Assembly (NCBI GenBank): GCA_964573325.1
Contig: CAZNJL010000001.1
Coordinates: 1-30,576 of the forward strand
DNA: 30,576 nucleotides
DNA from: an uncultured Candidatus Saccharibacteria bacterium
Lineage (GTDB): Bacteria > Patescibacteriota > WWE3 > UBA101185 > UBA10185
Direction of reading: 5' to 3'
Below are positions 21,601 through 27,091 of this stretch, one piece after another. Positions within the stretch are counted from its first letter, which is position 1; each line of letters starts with the position of its first letter. Both the position numbers and the translations under genes were made by a program. The notes under the pieces were generated by a model that saw only the letters and a program-made list of their open reading frames with translations, made no database searches and was not told the DNA's origin.

Positions 21601-21627
21601 AGTGGGTGATCATTATGATCACCCACT
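21601..21627. repeat. Perfect 13-bp inverted repeat between convergent genes (possible terminator)
   Basis: AGTGGGTGATCAT-T-ATGATCACCCACT. Confidence 0.7.
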
Positions 21628-21643
21628 CCAAAGATCGGATCAT

Positions 21644-22948
21644 CTAGCCAAACATAAGAAGTTCTGGTTTAAACAATAACAATATACCTACAGCTACCAT
21701 AAGCAAACCTCCCACAAACCTAGTGTGCTTCACATACTTCGTGGTAATACCGGTCATTCTTAGGGTTATCATTGCGACAAAGAACACAAATAAGTCGTCT
21801 AACATAAAAAACAGGATATACAAAAGGATATATAAATAGTAGTTCAGACCAACCATTTCATTCATAGACAATACCTGAGTATAAACGGCAGGCAATCCGG
21901 CCGAACATACCAACTCAACCAGATTAACCGCTAAAGCTAGTCCTACTATCCCGACTAAAGATAAAAGAAAAGACTTGTTAGAAGTTATTTTCCCCAAGTT
22001 ATCGAAAATTCTTCTTTTTTTCTCATCACCACCTATATCACACCCCGAGGGATCTTTGCTGAAAAATTTTCTTAGACTGCTGTAACCACCAAAGAAGGCT
22101 ATCAAGGCAATGGTAGTTCTCACCCAAGAGATATAACCCACAAATTGAAATAGACTAAGCCATGCCACCATAAAAATGAAGTAAGCAAATGCCGAGGCAA
22201 TAATAAATGATATTCCAAGAAACCACATTTTCTTTCTATCTTCCATAGCTATCAAAAGACTGATCAAAAAAAGCAACACCCACATAGCGCAGGGATTAAA
22301 TCCATCGAGAAAGCCGAGAACCACAGTCAATACAGGCAGAGATAGCTTTTCCATATCTATATTCCCAAATTGCGGGAGAGCCGGTTTGGCTATCTCTTCT
22401 GAAGGTGCGCACTTCTCTTCTTCAGATGAAATTATTGTGTCGGACAACTCATCTTCAATCACACTAACAGCATCTTTTTCAATTACAGATTCAGGACCAG
22501 TCGTTTCGTCGGTAATTCTTTCCCTCTCAGTTTTATCTATAACCTCAGTATCGGTAGGATTAAAAATATCAAGGCACCCATCTTGTTTATACTCCTCAAT
22601 CAATTTCACAATCTCCACGCCGGTAGTTTCTTCGCTCATATAACCGACAAGGTATTTATTGCCTATAATTAAAAAGGGAACGCCGCTTATCTCCACATCA
22701 AGTTTATCGGCTGCTTCCATAAGCTTTTCTCTTCCTTCCATATCGTTGTAAACCTCATAAGAATGCAGAATGATGCTATCGTCCACATCCGCTAAACCTT
22801 CCAGGAAATCCAGCTCTTTTGCACAATGAGGGCATCCTTGGCCATAAAAAAAATAGACGGTCACAACATCAGAAGCTTTAGCGTAGATATCAGATAGAAA
22901 AAGCAGGCTGCCAAATATCAAAGAGGCGATAAGTGTCTTAAGTCTCAT
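21644..22948 (-). CDS. Glutaredoxin/thioredoxin-fold domain fused to a DsbD/CcdA-like multi-TM domain
   Basis: Signal/TM, VYFFYGQGCPHC, acidic linker, then about six TM helices with DGFNPCAMWVL and VELVCSAGLP Cys motifs. Confidence 0.85.
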   Translation of the reverse strand: MRLKTLIASLIFGSLLFLSDIYAKASDVVTVYFFYGQGCPHCAKELDFLEGLADVDDSIILHSYEVYNDMEGREKLMEAADKLDVEISGVPFLIIGNKYLVGYMSEETTGVEIVKLIEEYKQDGCLDIFNPTDTEVIDKTERERITDETTGPESVIEKDAVSVIEDELSDTIISSEEEKCAPSEEIAKPALPQFGNIDMEKLSLPVLTVVLGFLDGFNPCAMWVLLFLISLLIAMEDRKKMWFLGISFIIASAFAYFIFMVAWLSLFQFVGYISWVRTTIALIAFFGGYSSLRKFFSKDPSGCDIGGDEKKRRIFDNLGKITSNKSFLLSLVGIVGLALAVNLVELVCSAGLPAVYTQVLSMNEMVGLNYYLYILLYILFFMLDDLFVFFVAMITLRMTGITTKYVKHTRFVGGLLMVAVGILLLFKPELLMFG

Positions 22949-22951
22949 ACA

Positions 22952-23221
22952 TTACTTATTAATGTTTTCTGAAATAGCCCTTAATAGCTGGCCTTTCTCG
23001 GCTTCCCCTGTAAATCTTAAAATCTCTTTGTTATCTTTATCCAGAAAAACACACACGGGCAACTTACTATCAATATTGAACATATCTACTGTCTCTTTAT
23101 CTTTGTCAAAATCATAGTACTCAGTTATCAAATTCGGTATTTCTTTTTCTATTTCTTCCCATTTAGGCCTCATGACAAGACATCCGGAACACCAAACTGC
23201 GCCAAACTTTAATACTTTCAT
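22952..23221 (-). CDS. Small thioredoxin-family protein
   Basis: KFGAVWCSGC, cis-Pro region LPVCVF, GGAG RBS; no signal peptide. Confidence 0.85.
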   Translation of the reverse strand: MKVLKFGAVWCSGCLVMRPKWEEIEKEIPNLITEYYDFDKDKETVDMFNIDSKLPVCVFLDKDNKEILRFTGEAEKGQLLRAISENINK

Positions 23222-23271
23222 ATATAAACTCCTATAAATAAGAGACTTTCTACTTAGTTATTACATTTACG

Positions 23272-23370
23272 CTATCTACCACCACCAATGCCATTATCAC
23301 CGCAAGGACCTTTACCTCTACTCATCTTTGAACCCCGGCCATAAGGTCCCATTTTACCTTTATTAGGCAC
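23272..23370 (-). CDS. 32-aa DUF5320-like peptide, absent from the ORF track
   Basis: GTG start; MPNKGKMGPYGRGSKMSRGKGPCGDNGIGGGR. It has 13 identities over the first 24 gapless positions with the 25929-26180 protein. Confidence 0.65.
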   Translation of the reverse strand: MPNKGKMGPYGRGSKMSRGKGPCGDNGIGGGR

Positions 23371-23397
23371 GTTCAACACTACTTTCCATAGACTTAA

Positions 23398-23411
23398 TGA
23401 ATACGTATTCA
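23398..23411. promoter_or_regulatory. Palindromic operator, copy 1
   Basis: Perfect palindrome TGAATACGTATTCA, directly after a minus-strand TGaTAACAT box; identical to 26209-26222. Confidence 0.8.
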
Positions 23412-23455
23412 ATGTTATCACCATCAAATGCTTTTTGGTAGTAAAATATAACTAT

Positions 23456-24421
23456 ATGAGATATGGGCATGGAAGACATGGTTTAGGAAGGGGGATGGGT
23501 CTGGGAAGAGGTGCCGGTGAGAAAAACTCGGGCTATGGTAGACAGCACACGCCTCGTGGCAAAGGCATAGGAAGAATGTTGAAAGAGGCGCAGAGGGGAG
23601 AGATAACAGAATATGAAGTTTATTCCAGGCTCGCGAAGTTAACACGAAATCAAGAAAACAGCAGGACACTGAAACTGCTCGCGGGGGAAGAAAGAGAACA
23701 TGCTAAATTTTGGAAAACACACACGAACGAGGAACTTAAACCCGACCGTCTGAAGGTTTTCTTTCATGTATTAATATCTAAAATGTTTGGTCTTAATTTT
23801 GGACTCAAGCTTATGGAAAGCGGGGAAGGAAGGGCCCAAATAAATTACAACGAGATATCAAAGGAAATCCCGGCGGCGGCACAAATAGAAAAGGATGAAT
23901 CAAAACACGAACATCAACTCCTGAACATGATAGATGATGCAAAGTTAAACTACGTAAGCTCTATGGTTCTGGGAGTAAGTGACGCGCTTGTTGAATTGAC
24001 CGGCGCACTAGCAGGTCTTACATTTGCACTCCAAAACACAAATCTTATCGCGTTAACAGGAATGATTACCGGAATCGCAGCGTCTTTTTCTATGAGCGGC
24101 TCTGAATATCTATCTACAAAATCAGAGGGTGGCGGCAAGAATCCTTTAAAAGCGGCCTTTTATACCGGGATAATGTATTTATTAACAGTTATTTTGCTCA
24201 TTTTACCTTATCTGTTGATAGAGCAAGTTTATTTATCTCTTGCTATAACTTTGGCAACCGCAATTCTTATAATCTTTTGTTTCACCTTCTACATTTCAGT
24301 AGCACAAGATATCCCTTTTAAAAAAAGGTTCTTGGAGATGACGGCCATAAGCCTGGGAGTGTCTACGCTGTCTTTTATGATAGGCATGTTTGTAAGAAAG
24401 TATTTTGATATAGAAATCTAG
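23456..24421 (+). CDS. Ferritin/erythrin-like di-iron domain fused to a VIT1/CCC1 transporter (MbfA-like architecture), with Gly/Arg-rich N-extension
   Basis: EITEYEVY, EEREH, DESKH ExxH motifs; VLGVSDALVELTGALAG and ASFSMSGSEYLS VIT1 motifs. Confidence 0.88.
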   Translation: MRYGHGRHGLGRGMGLGRGAGEKNSGYGRQHTPRGKGIGRMLKEAQRGEITEYEVYSRLAKLTRNQENSRTLKLLAGEEREHAKFWKTHTNEELKPDRLKVFFHVLISKMFGLNFGLKLMESGEGRAQINYNEISKEIPAAAQIEKDESKHEHQLLNMIDDAKLNYVSSMVLGVSDALVELTGALAGLTFALQNTNLIALTGMITGIAASFSMSGSEYLSTKSEGGGKNPLKAAFYTGIMYLLTVILLILPYLLIEQVYLSLAITLATAILIIFCFTFYISVAQDIPFKKRFLEMTAISLGVSTLSFMIGMFVRKYFDIEI

Positions 24422-24441
24422 AGTTAAATATTGAATGTTCT

Positions 24442-25566
24442 TCATCGTTCGTTTTCTGACCCGGCAACAAAAGAAGCTACAAGGGTTGTAATGGGAACAG
24501 CAACAATTAATCCTATACTACCAAGCAAAGTCCTTATTATTTCAGAAGATACTATTTCGTAATTTATTACTTCATTAAAAGATTTTGTGGAATCTATAAA
24601 CAGAAGTAGTAAAGGAAGAGAAGCGCCGACATACACAAGAATCAACGTGTTGATCATGGATGCTATATGATCCTTACCTACCTCCGTGGCTCGTTTAAAT
24701 AGCTCGGAAAAAGTAAATCTCCGATTCGCTTTTTTAAGCTGGAATACTATAGCTGATTGAGATATCGTAATATCGTCTAGAACACCTAGTACACCCACAA
24801 TAATCCCAGCTAACAATATTCCCTTCATATTAAATGTCCCTCCTTTAGCTATCTGTAAGAACGATGCTTCGTCTGTTGTAAAACCAGTCAACCTGGCACT
24901 GTTAACATAGATTGATGACAAAGCTATTGTTATAACCAGAGAAATAAGAGTGGCTATAATTGCCACACTGGTTTTTTTGTTTAAACCATGGGAAAGATAG
25001 AAATTGACTGGTATAGATATTATTGAGAACACTAATATTATAAAAATCACGTTGGATCCCGAACTTATCTTAGGTAAAACAAGAGAAAATAATGCCCAGA
25101 ATGTTATCGCCATACCAATTAAAGATGTAAAACCTCTCTTACCTGCCACTATCACTGATATCACCAGAAAGATCAAAAACAGAGATAATAAAGAACCTCT
25201 CCGCACATAATCACTTATATATAGATGCGTTTCACCGCCCTCACCTTGAGATCCCGTCAATACTAACACATCATTTTTGCTGTAATTTTGGGTAGTTGGC
25301 GTGTCCCCGAGCCCATTTTCAACCGTAAATATTTTTCCTTGAAGTTCATTATTTAAAATCTCAATTTCCAGCTTCTGATAATATCCTCCATGAGTATTTA
25401 GATGTTCTTCAATAACACTTCTAACCCTACCCTCATATGTTGTCTGAACATTAATTGATGTGTTTTCTTGTGCAAGAGAAATGCGGAAAGCGCCAAAAGC
25501 ACCTATAAGCAAAGAACAAGCGACAGCAATGGAAAACACTAATTTTTTGCATAGGATACTTTTCAT
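24442..25566 (-). CDS. YibE/F-family membrane protein
   Basis: DYVRRGSL, YLSHG.NKKT..AI..TL, IIVGVLGVLDDITISQ, GKDHIASMINTLILVYVGASLP, EIIRTLLGSIG. Confidence 0.9.
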   Translation of the reverse strand: MKSILCKKLVFSIAVACSLLIGAFGAFRISLAQENTSINVQTTYEGRVRSVIEEHLNTHGGYYQKLEIEILNNELQGKIFTVENGLGDTPTTQNYSKNDVLVLTGSQGEGGETHLYISDYVRRGSLLSLFLIFLVISVIVAGKRGFTSLIGMAITFWALFSLVLPKISSGSNVIFIILVFSIISIPVNFYLSHGLNKKTSVAIIATLISLVITIALSSIYVNSARLTGFTTDEASFLQIAKGGTFNMKGILLAGIIVGVLGVLDDITISQSAIVFQLKKANRRFTFSELFKRATEVGKDHIASMINTLILVYVGASLPLLLLFIDSTKSFNEVINYEIVSSEIIRTLLGSIGLIVAVPITTLVASFVAGSENER

Positions 25567-25574
25567 ATTATGGT

Positions 25575-25859
25575 CTACTTCTCATCTTCAGTTATCTTAA
25601 TAGCCTTACCATTGATCAGAGCATCAGCTGCTTTTTTGCATGCCAAGTCTATCGTTCTGGCAAAAGTTGGCTGTGATATATGCATTTTCTCAGCTGATTC
25701 TGTCTGATCCAGCTTATCCACTAAGTACAACTTCAGGGATTCCAATTCATCCGGGAACAAAACCACCTCCTCAAGTTCCCTCAAAGGGATCCCTTGCGGC
25801 TTAAAGTAACGTACATTCGGTTCAAAATGTAGACAACGCGGTATTCTTGGTCTAGACAT
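25575..25859 (-). CDS. DUF134 (UPF0251) HTH DNA-binding protein
   Basis: MSRPRIPRCL, YFKPQGIP, DELESLKL, DQTESAEKMHISQPTFAR, ADALINGKAIKI. Confidence 0.9.
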   Translation of the reverse strand: MSRPRIPRCLHFEPNVRYFKPQGIPLRELEEVVLFPDELESLKLYLVDKLDQTESAEKMHISQPTFARTIDLACKKAADALINGKAIKITEDEK

Positions 25860-25928
25860 ATTATTTTATACAGTGATTATACGACCATACCCCGGTTATG
25901 GTCTAGGAAGCCTGCCGAGGTATCGTTC

Positions 25929-26180
25929 TTACTCACCCTTGCTTAGCTCCACTTCTTCCTTTTTCACATTTTCTAATTCTTCCTCAAGAGCTTTCTTATA
26001 GTCAGCTAAAGATCTTTTTTGGTCGGTGGGCGTTTGCGACCGATTCCAGTCGGAGTATCTGCCCATACCTCTACCCATTCCAAATCCCTTCCTCCGACCC
26101 AAACCCATGCCACAAGGACCGAAACCTCTTCCTGTCATTGAACCTTGTCCCATAGGACCTGTTCTATCAAATCTTGGCAT
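25929..26180 (-). CDS. DUF5320-family small protein
   Basis: MPRFDRTGPMGQGSMTGRGFGPCG, Gly/Arg-rich middle, C-terminal coiled coil; GAGGTG RBS. Confidence 0.88.
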   Translation of the reverse strand: MPRFDRTGPMGQGSMTGRGFGPCGMGLGRRKGFGMGRGMGRYSDWNRSQTPTDQKRSLADYKKALEEELENVKKEEVELSKGE

Positions 26181-26208
26181 TTTTAATCACCTCTTTCAAT
26201 TAACTAAG

Positions 26209-26222
26209 TGAATACGTATTCA
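26209..26222. promoter_or_regulatory. Palindromic operator, copy 2
   Basis: TGAATACGTATTCA, overlapping the last base of the -10 box and the predicted transcription start. Confidence 0.8.
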
Positions 26223-26250
26223 TAATAATCCTCCTGTGATGTGATGTCAA
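26222..26250 (-). promoter_or_regulatory. Sigma70 promoter of the DUF5320-DUF134-YibE/F operon
   Basis: TTGACA (26250-26245), 17-bp spacer, TATTAT (26227-26222). Confidence 0.8.
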
Positions 26251-26449: not shown

Positions 26450-27091
26450 CTAATCCGAGGAGTCCTCGTGTTCTTGCCTGCTAGCTATACCCCCCTCAAT
26501 CGCCCGCAAAGAAAGCTTGTAAACCTCTCCCGTTTCAGAAAAATCAGCCAACGCCTTATTAACAACTGGGATCAAGGCTTCGGCCGCAGCGGCTTTCTCA
26601 CTGTTTATTGAATACTTTGTAACCGTCCTTAAAAGTTTCTTTTCTTCGGTAGTGTTTAAGTAGCCTTTTTCCACCAAACTACGTTTTGAAATATGAATTA
26701 TGTGCCCCCAAGGCAGAGTCTCATCATTGGAAAGGAGATAATAAACCGCACTTCGAACTTTGTAATCATCCCCAATATTATTCAAAAGTTTAAGCTCTAT
26801 TCCTGACAAAGCATCGGGAGAATCTGAGGTTGCTTCCTTAAGCTTCGTGGCAAAAACATCCTTTCCGGGGAATATAAAAAGATTTTTGACATCTTTAATG
26901 GATAGCGAAATATAACCCTTTTCTTTAAGAAATACCAAGGCGACGGTTGCCATTAGGTTTCCCAATGGTTTAACAGGTATCTTTTCTCCCGTTGGGTGCT
27001 TTTCCATATTTGCTAACTTTGCCCGTTGTGAAATAAACTTGTCGGCAAATAAATACATTATTTCTGAGTATGTAAGATTAATGTTTTCCAT
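26450..27091 (-). CDS. Hypothetical protein, weak resemblance to the GPP34/GOLPH3 fold
   Basis: 213-aa ORF with TATAAT 7 nt upstream; L..KGYI and LVEKGYL...EEKKLL patterns. The family call is tentative. Confidence 0.55.
   Translation of the reverse strand: MENINLTYSEIMYLFADKFISQRAKLANMEKHPTGEKIPVKPLGNLMATVALVFLKEKGYISLSIKDVKNLFIFPGKDVFATKLKEATSDSPDALSGIELKLLNNIGDDYKVRSAVYYLLSNDETLPWGHIIHISKRSLVEKGYLNTTEEKKLLRTVTKYSINSEKAAAAEALIPVVNKALADFSETGEVYKLSLRAIEGGIASRQEHEDSSD

Follow-up and report, generated by a model that had tools for sequence, protein, structure and literature searches.

What reads a palindrome that stands on two promoters of one small bacterial locus, and which genes does it control? 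The question is raised by a 30,576-nucleotide stretch of DNA, here called the window, from an uncultured Candidatus Saccharibacteria bacterium (contig CAZNJL010000001.1 of assembly GCA_964573325.1). A perfect 14-bp palindrome, TGAATACGTATTCA, occurs in it exactly at 23398-23411 (O1) and 26209-26222 (O2). Behind O2 lie the genes for a small DUF5320 protein, a helix-turn-helix (HTH) protein of the DUF134 family and a YibE/F-family membrane protein; behind O1 lie a short DUF5320-like open reading frame (ORF), a thioredoxin-like (Trx) gene and a gene for a glutaredoxin-like (Grx), CcdA-like membrane protein. An earlier note on this stretch proposed that the palindrome is the operator of DUF134, that it is placed for repression, that DUF134 regulates itself, and that the Trx/Grx-CcdA genes are its second target. 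We believe that it is likely the operator of the DUF134 encoded at 25575-25859, a predicted autorepressor. Footprinting, co-occurrence and co-variation, all of them comparisons of sequence, support these four proposals.

DUF134, or UPF0251, is an old and widespread family, and it would gain a predicted operator, a sign of regulation and a conserved cargo, which makes it a directly testable target. We found no functional study in the literature on DUF134/UPF0251/COG1342/PF02001, on DUF5320 or on the motif strings; the single match to UPF0251 was in a table of mutations. The mechanism that we propose would be that of a classical autorepressor; what would be new are the family with its classes of operator, its small partner, and the sharing of one site between bacteria and archaea. 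The bacteria of the candidate phyla radiation (CPR) and the DPANN archaea have very few regulators, and few of their local circuits can be read from sequence as this one can.

A site tied to the DUF134 promoter

Apart from O1 and O2 the window holds no match to TGAATACGTATTCA at up to 2 mismatches, and none of 100 dinucleotide shuffles of the window reached two matches. O1 and O2 are also the only exact copies in the whole source assembly (764 kb, 84% complete), whose best matches are to candidate division WWE3. A genome-wide scan, which the earlier note had suggested, was made with a weight matrix built from related sites. It leaves two strong sites, both on promoters in the window, and only two extra ones, both much weaker and both intragenic; we rejected C82:1927 and C124:520 as additional regulon members because their weak matrix scores and intragenic positions point to chance. 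The two-copy layout could be suspected of being an assembly artefact, and independent contigs rule this out. Logan contigs from four lake-water runs have the same arrangement, and one of them covers 22352-24460 with 0 differences. Other lake-water contigs agree with the window only over 26148-26184, where the conserved 5' part of the DUF5320 coding region lies, and differ beyond it, so related organisms with the same module co-occur in lake samples.

Each copy directly follows a minus-strand -10 box. At O2 this is part of the best sigma-70 match within 21.5-26.5 kb (TTGACA-17-TATTAT, 11/12), and the last T of TATTAT is the first base of O2, which spans about -7 to +7. The same geometry, TTGACA-N17-TATTA/T with the stroke standing before that T, recurs in dozens of loci. 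At O1 there is no recognisable -35, and the two-hexamer scan did not pick up the extended -10 that is read there directly from the letters. Both boxes stand where the earlier note placed them.

We compared 61 genomes of the same class, 25 with DUF134 and 36 without. In 19 of the 25 the exact TGAATANNTATTCA is present, always at the locus of DUF134 (in G018, on the end of a neighbouring contig that overlaps), and two more have it there with 1 mismatch. The last four have a sister motif, TGGGTAnnTAYTCA (TGGGTRTAYAYTCA), in one copy each at the DUF134 locus, and this pattern has only one occurrence elsewhere in all 61 genomes. Footprinting of this kind had been suggested before, along with the caution that a motif scattered without promoters would speak against an operator. 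What we find is the motif or its sister on the core promoter of DUF5320-DUF134 in 25/25 DUF134-positive genomes (21 + 4), at 23-45 nt from the DUF5320 start. A second exact site is found in none of the relatives. Five of the 36 DUF134-less genomes have an exact match (six matches in all). Of five such sites inspected, three are intragenic, one falls on the junction of two genes and another is intergenic with unrelated neighbours, and they look like chance; a reversed control pattern gives a similar background, with 5 matches. One genome has an odd site of the other kind. At G040:C2:4366-4379 (L269), TGGGTATATACTCA stands before a sugar-transferase gene, and 46 nt upstream of this site is a perfect palindrome, GGGTATATACCC. 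The sole DUF134 detected in G040 is of the TGAATA class despite this class-2 motif, which is possibly there by chance.

The same pairing of operator and DUF134 is seen in a wider sample of 80 further loci from species-representative genomes (CPR phyla, Dependentiae, Chloroflexota, DPANN and other archaea). The bacterial consensus is TTGACA-N17-TATTA/T-GAATAnnTATTCA-TAAT, stroke as above, with symmetry reaching about 20 bp; in one bacterial family the palindrome instead fills the 17-bp spacer between -35 and -10. At archaeal loci it lies 5-8 nt past the TTTATATA box, between TATA box and start; often DUF134 has another site in front of it, at -15 to -19, or two sites stand in tandem at a distance of 23-24 bp. 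Tandem DPANN operators before DUF5320 occur in L092 (-756/-733), L095 (-820/-796) and L120 (-441/-417), counted relative to DUF134. This spacing of about two helical turns, together with the -15/-19 site, hints at cooperative binding. The bacterial -10/+1, the spacer and the archaeal TATA-start placements are all repression geometries. In the control region, which is of equal length and lies downstream of DUF134, a site with at most 1 mismatch is present in just 1 out of about 100 loci. When metagenomes were scanned without bias for a -10 plus operator, 82 sites came up, of which 33 are directly upstream of a DUF5320/DUF134 ORF and 8 more have the DUF5320/DUF134 gene on the other side. Three identical matches among the remaining sites (L152, L191, L203) were rejected as operators: in L152, the sole one examined, the site lies in the terminal repeats of an IS21-like element, and we put the matches down to chance. 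In the end of that element (L152 2720-2875) the palindromes CCGGGTACGTACCCGG and TGAATACGTATTCA are adjacent.

Conservation, position and phyletic linkage, shown here in silico, bear on two other explanations of the palindrome. It could be bound by an unlinked regulator of, for example, the Rex, Fur or Rrf2 type, with DUF134 merely one of the target genes. The arms TGAA...TTCA do resemble the operators of other HTH proteins. However, the motif is not at promoters in the 36 DUF134-less relatives, in DUF134 genomes it is essentially confined to the DUF134 locus, and its type switches together with the DUF134 helix; the same pairing in archaea and bacteria makes a shared third regulator unlikely. 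The Rex-type operator is TGTGAA-N4-TTCACA, and we rejected it because its spacing differs and the motif tracks DUF134. We regard an unlinked regulator as very unlikely. Even less likely, to the point of being hardly credible, is a role in RNA, in which the palindrome would fold into a hairpin of the 5' leader, an attenuator or stability element, and not serve as DNA bound by a protein. The bacterial palindrome is at or just past the predicted start and so would be largely transcribed. Against this, the arms are invariant with no compensatory changes and variation is confined to the central 2 nt, an A/T-rich stem of 6 bp capped by a 2-nt loop is not stable, and in the family with the spacer arrangement the palindrome is not transcribed. 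Rfam, searched with 21.5-26.6 kb at an E cut-off of 1, gave no match.

Recognition helix, fold and operator type

If DUF134 reads the site, then its recognition helix and the site should change together. The set for this comparison was 102 loci with their DUF134 proteins, from CPR bacteria and DPANN archaea. All 62 loci whose protein has Pro64 (helix [IV]SQPT; ISQPTFART in the window) have the TGAATA-N2-TATTCA type, 60 of them within 900 bp and 2 further upstream. No TGGGTA-type locus has Pro64, and 23 have Ser; helices of the form TS[QT]ST go with the TGGGTA type in 17/22 loci. Three SRQT loci have still other palindromes on a TTGACA promoter, two of the GCATATGC type and the third, L130, of the GGGCATACGCCC type. 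In a maximum-likelihood tree of the 102 proteins the starred branches force at least five changes of operator label; for example, the Ser-bearing pair L067/L076 lies inside the Pro/TGAATA half. This co-variation is seen in the sequences themselves, and the helix and operator classes offer a natural experiment on specificity in DNA recognition. Sites of the TGGGTA class contain the -10 (TATAYT), and this accounts for their asymmetry.

The fold of DUF134 points in the same direction. In an AlphaFold2 model (pLDDT 89) the core of three helices resembles sigma region 4 and, most closely, the DNA-bound DNA-binding domain of DeoR. A DUF134 profile searched against the PDB finds this domain of B. subtilis DeoR at E 3e-5, and Foldseek matches the model to 7bhy with probability 1.0 and a root-mean-square deviation of 0.7 over 41 columns. 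B. subtilis DeoR (SorC family; PDB 7bhy, 8r7y) also has a sigma-70-region-4-like HTH, and its recognition helix is nearly the same, ISRPTVSR where DUF134 has ISQPTFAR; it is a repressor that binds as a dimer to a palindrome with the same TGAA-N6-TTCA core and spacing; for DUF134 the dimer and the repression are inferred. The left operator of DeoR at dra-nupC-pdp, ATTGAACAAAATTTCAAT, is of the form TGAA-N6-TTCA, and two base-contacting Arg, five residues apart, are named in the same study (PMC11229326). These are probably the two Arg of ISRPTVSR, which have that spacing and would align with Q63 and the invariant R68 of DUF134.

The likeness ends with the HTH, and DUF134 is not a member of the SorC/DeoR family. 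Its 94 aa are without the SorC sugar-phosphate effector domain (neither Pfam nor NCBIfam finds a SorC domain in it, and the protein ends at residue 94), and it has a conserved N-terminal RPRxxR...YFKPxGxP segment. Its operator lies over -10/+1 whereas that of DeoR lies from -60 to -21, no second half-operator or tetramer requirement is evident, and its partner is a small Cys peptide, DUF5320.

The phyletic pattern, the co-variation and the DeoR analogue together make DUF134 very probably an autorepressor. The mechanism would be simple. A DUF134 dimer would set an HTH of the sigma-70-region-4 kind on either TGAATA half-site, the core being TGAA-N6-TTCA, and because the operator runs from the last base of the -10 across the transcription start, bound DUF134 would block RNA polymerase. 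At O2 it would repress its own operon, DUF5320-DUF134-YibE/F, and at O1 the operon of the mini-DUF5320, Trx and the Grx/CcdA-like protein. Our best guess for the inducing signal is thiol or redox stress, which DUF5320, a peptide with a Cys, would help to sense. We infer the binding by DUF134, its dimer state, the sign of regulation and this signal.

LexA and the local repressors of the TetR/ArsR type work in a similar way: a palindrome overlaps the core promoter of the regulator's own operon, there are one or two sites per genome, and the cargo is co-transcribed with the regulator. Two marks of an autoregulated pair are present here, since the conserved palindrome overlaps the core promoter of the regulator's own unit in the 25 relatives and the type of site tracks the DNA-reading residues of DUF134, though not one-to-one for Ser64. 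DUF134 differs in belonging to an unrelated family, in standing second behind a conserved small peptide, and in having the same predicted site serve both the bacterial (-10/+1) and the archaeal (TATA box-start) promoter architecture. The orp operons that OrpR controls in Desulfovibrio vulgaris (PMC8359166) are also similar in being redox-linked genes of anaerobes. OrpR, however, is not a DUF134 protein; it belongs to the sigma-54 enhancer-binding proteins and has a PAS sensor with [4Fe-4S], and the window has no orp-type genes, its cargo being Trx, Grx/CcdA-like and YibE/F.

Several points weigh against DUF134 as the autorepressor acting at both sites. Helices with Ser64 occur with either operator type, so the co-variation is not one-to-one, and L098 and L121 have the same helix and different operators. 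The adjacency and near-identical phyletic pattern of DUF5320 leave some chance, as far as genomics goes, that it is part of the DNA-binding unit. O1 could be a recent duplication relic, too young to have decayed. None of the RNA runs searched holds the locus.

The point on DUF5320 deserves to be taken as an explanation of its own. DUF5320, alone or in an obligate complex with DUF134, might recognise the palindrome, and DUF134 would then be only an accessory or an RNA polymerase adaptor. In 55/80 loci the operator is followed first by DUF5320, which is Arg/Gly-rich with a coiled coil and is fused to DUF134 in L026 and L129. Yet it has no recognisable DNA-binding fold, and it is the DUF134 recognition helix that co-varies with the operator type and the DUF134 HTH that is homologous to a DeoR domain reading the TGAA-N6-TTCA core. 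In L008, L083, L103 and L127 the sites stand directly before DUF134 with no DUF5320 ahead of it. We consider recognition by DUF5320 quite unlikely, and DUF134 the better candidate for the reader.

The fusions hint at what DUF5320 may do. The DUF5320 N-motif is joined to the N-terminus of DUF134 in L026 and to its C-terminus in L129, and many DUF134 proteins have Gly/Arg-rich tails with Cys4 zinc-ribbon motifs (L006-L008, L083, L120; L077, L121, L127, L114). Fusions to the N-motif or to Cys4 tails suggest a detachable Cys-based sensory module. In L130 DUF134 is fused to a domain that reads by eye as NifX-like. The predicted complex of DUF134 and DUF5320 scored 0.01, which is evidence neither for nor against binding. 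A more ambitious proposal, which we offer tentatively and think rather doubtful as a whole, is that the two proteins form a two-part sensor-repressor in CPR and DPANN: the N-motif would dock on DUF134, a thiol-redox or metal signal would release the TGAATA-N2-TATTCA operator, and the helix residues Pro64/Ile61 versus Ser/Thr would reprogramme TGAATA to TGGGTA. It is equally tentative that the N-motif is replaced elsewhere by the fused Cys4 zinc-ribbon tails or is itself fused to DUF134. If true, the DUF134 family would be a natural, portable and orthogonal set of repressors and operators for bacterial and archaeal promoters.

A probable operon split and a duplicated palindrome

Why does this genome have two sites where its relatives have no second exact one? 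In the nearest relatives (L022, L073, L025/L053, L057) the order DUF5320-DUF134-YibE/F-Trx-Grx/CcdA is one uninterrupted operon; other relatives are without YibE/F. The uninterrupted operon of the nearest relatives makes the erythrin-VIT1 gene the insertion. The two units of the window would once have been a single operon, until an erythrin-VIT1 gene entered it between YibE/F and Trx. The operator, together with the DNA that leads from it into the 5' end of DUF5320, would have been duplicated before Trx, keeping the severed thiol-redox genes under the same control. This illustrates how a regulon might grow.

The duplicate before Trx, which reaches from the operator as far as codon 25 or so of DUF5320, has diverged. 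All positions of its palindrome match (14/14), whereas the 30-40 nt beside it show only about 50% identity; the distance to the start is nearly unchanged (27 vs 28 nt). No -35 is left, TAGTG stands in place of GAGGTG, and the start codon is GTG where DUF5320 has ATG. An intact palindrome between decayed flanks argues for selection on it.

The alternative is that O2 works and O1 is only a young relic of the duplication, with Trx-Grx/CcdA, and VIT1, constitutive or otherwise controlled. The origin of O1 in a duplicated O2 region, the absence of a -35, the loss of the Shine-Dalgarno (SD) sequence and ATG of the mini ORF and the lack of a second exact site in any relative all fit this. The contrast between palindrome and flanks just described does not, and the extended -10 (TGnTAnnnT) abuts O1 in the canonical register. 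Trx-Grx/CcdA also lies within the operator-led operon in many genomes, and L056 has an independent operator-like site before a separate Trx-Grx/CcdA unit. We think it unlikely that O1 is a mere relic, although less so than any other alternative considered here.

The insertion has a likely promoter of its own, and control of VIT1 by DUF134 is possible but unsupported. Two proposals of the earlier note find no support, namely that erythrin-VIT1 belongs to the regulon and that the regulon has a metal theme. None of the 60 relatives has a full erythrin-VIT1 gene, nor a VIT1 gene beside DUF134, and the three closest VIT1 homologues inspected elsewhere have no operator. The likely VIT1 transcript is leaderless, and its proximal box is conserved as GTAGTAAAAT in 2 of these 3 homologues; O1 is centred about 50 bp upstream of its start, outside the core promoter. 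The metal theme came from VIT1 only, whereas the conserved cargo is a predicted transmembrane thiol-reducing pathway (Trx with the Grx-like/CcdA-like protein) plus YibE/F.

A third proposal, that the block was acquired as a unit, is not supported either. The window DUF134 nests among its own family's copies in the tree, and the operon is intact in the nearest relatives. The proposal drew on the SD-type starts, and these were described correctly. In most genes of the window a TAnAAT box stands 6-10 nt ahead of the ATG and an SD is missing (for example upstream of 10028, 17954, 19718, 20933 and 26450-27091), while the DUF5320 and Trx genes have leaders with an SD. Judging from these boxes, the organism appears to use mainly leaderless mRNAs, with the SD-led genes (DUF5320, Trx and a few others) as the exception. 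An operator at +1 would require a leader, which is the simpler account of the SD-type starts of DUF5320 and Trx and needs no import.

Genes and signals of the block

The features are collected in Table 1. Pfam bears out the gene calls that had been made from the letters for DUF134, DUF5320, YibE_F, Rubrerythrin plus VIT1 and Thioredoxin.

Table 1. Features of the two transcription units, their promoters and the gene between them (window coordinates; a dot marks no strand)
Feature	Position	Strand	Remarks
Predicted operator O2, TGAATACGTATTCA	26209..26222	.	Promoter of DUF5320-DUF134-YibE/F operon; same place in relatives
Predicted operator O1, TGAATACGTATTCA	23398..23411	.	Centre of 103-bp divergent intergenic region; 14/14 kept, flanks diverged
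Sigma-70-type promoter	26222..26250	-	TTGACA 26250-26245, 17 nt, TATTAT 26227-26222
Extended -10, TGaTAACAT	23412..23420	-	Abuts O1; upstream of mini-DUF5320/Trx/Grx-CcdA unit; read from sequence
DUF5320 protein, 83 aa	25929..26180	-	Pfam PF17253, 63.1 bits vs gathering 27
Inverted repeat, 7-bp stem, 7-nt loop	25883..25903	-	Between DUF5320 and DUF134; read from sequence
DUF134 (UPF0251) HTH protein, 94 aa	25575..25859	-	Pfam PF02001, 67.1 bits vs 27 cut-off, residues 2-89
YibE/F-family membrane protein	24442..25566	-	Pfam YibE_F, 231 bits; last gene of first transcription unit
Erythrin (rubrerythrin-like)-VIT1 fusion	23456..24421	+	Pfam Rubrerythrin + VIT1; convergent with YibE/F; Gly/Arg-rich N-terminal tail
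TAAAAT, likely -10 of leaderless VIT1 transcript	23442..23447	+	8 nt before ATG
DUF5320-like ORF, 32 aa	23272..23370	-	GTG start, degenerate SD; 27 nt past O1
Thioredoxin-like protein, WCSGC	22952..23221	-	SD; Pfam Thioredoxin, NCBIfam
434-aa protein: signal peptide, Trx/Grx-like domain (CPHC), 6-TM (transmembrane) domain	21644..22948	-	Weak Pfam Glutaredoxin match
Intrinsic-terminator-like hairpin, 12 bp	21601..21627	-	End of second unit

DUF134 and DUF5320 are each single-copy in the genome. DUF5320 starts 28 nt past O2 behind a strong SD, GAGGTG, and consists of the N-terminal motif MPxFDxTGPxGxGxxTGRGxGPC, a Gly/Arg-rich middle and a coiled-coil tail; M1, G8, P9, G13, G21 and C23 are invariant in the alignment. 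The 32-aa ORF behind O1 aligns with residues 1-25 and keeps G8, P9, G13, G21 and C23. Pfam gave no match to it, the version scanned being the 26-aa one from an internal ATG. Short DUF5320 forms also occur in L020/L105, and the ORF could be either a relic or a small peptide with a function.

The cargo varies. YibE/F follows DUF134 in 12/80 loci and a Grx/CcdA-like gene in 25-27 of 80. The name CcdA-like needs care, as the TM domain of the 434-aa protein has no Pfam DsbD_TM (PF02683) or DsbD_2 match at E up to 5. Compared with CcdA/DsbD_TM clusters it has an Atlas feature score of 0.90-0.92 and a TM-score of 0.56-0.60, a resemblance by features and structure only; Cys residues are read from the sequence in two of its TM helices.

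The erythrin-VIT1 gene has the same Rubrerythrin plus VIT1 architecture as MbfA, the alpha-proteobacterial iron exporter. Its product differs in reaching 36.3 bits against the cut-off of 450 for NCBIfam NF045676 and in having the Gly/Arg-rich N-terminal tail. The tails of the closest erythrin-VIT1 proteins (window 23456-23580; P0003, P0009, P0014, P0027) are likewise Arg/Gly-rich and resemble the middle of DUF5320.

Stem-loops between DUF5320 and DUF134, like the inverted repeat of the window, are also found in L006, L007, L013 and L028. Such a stem-loop may be an attenuator or partial terminator that sets a high ratio of DUF5320 to DUF134.

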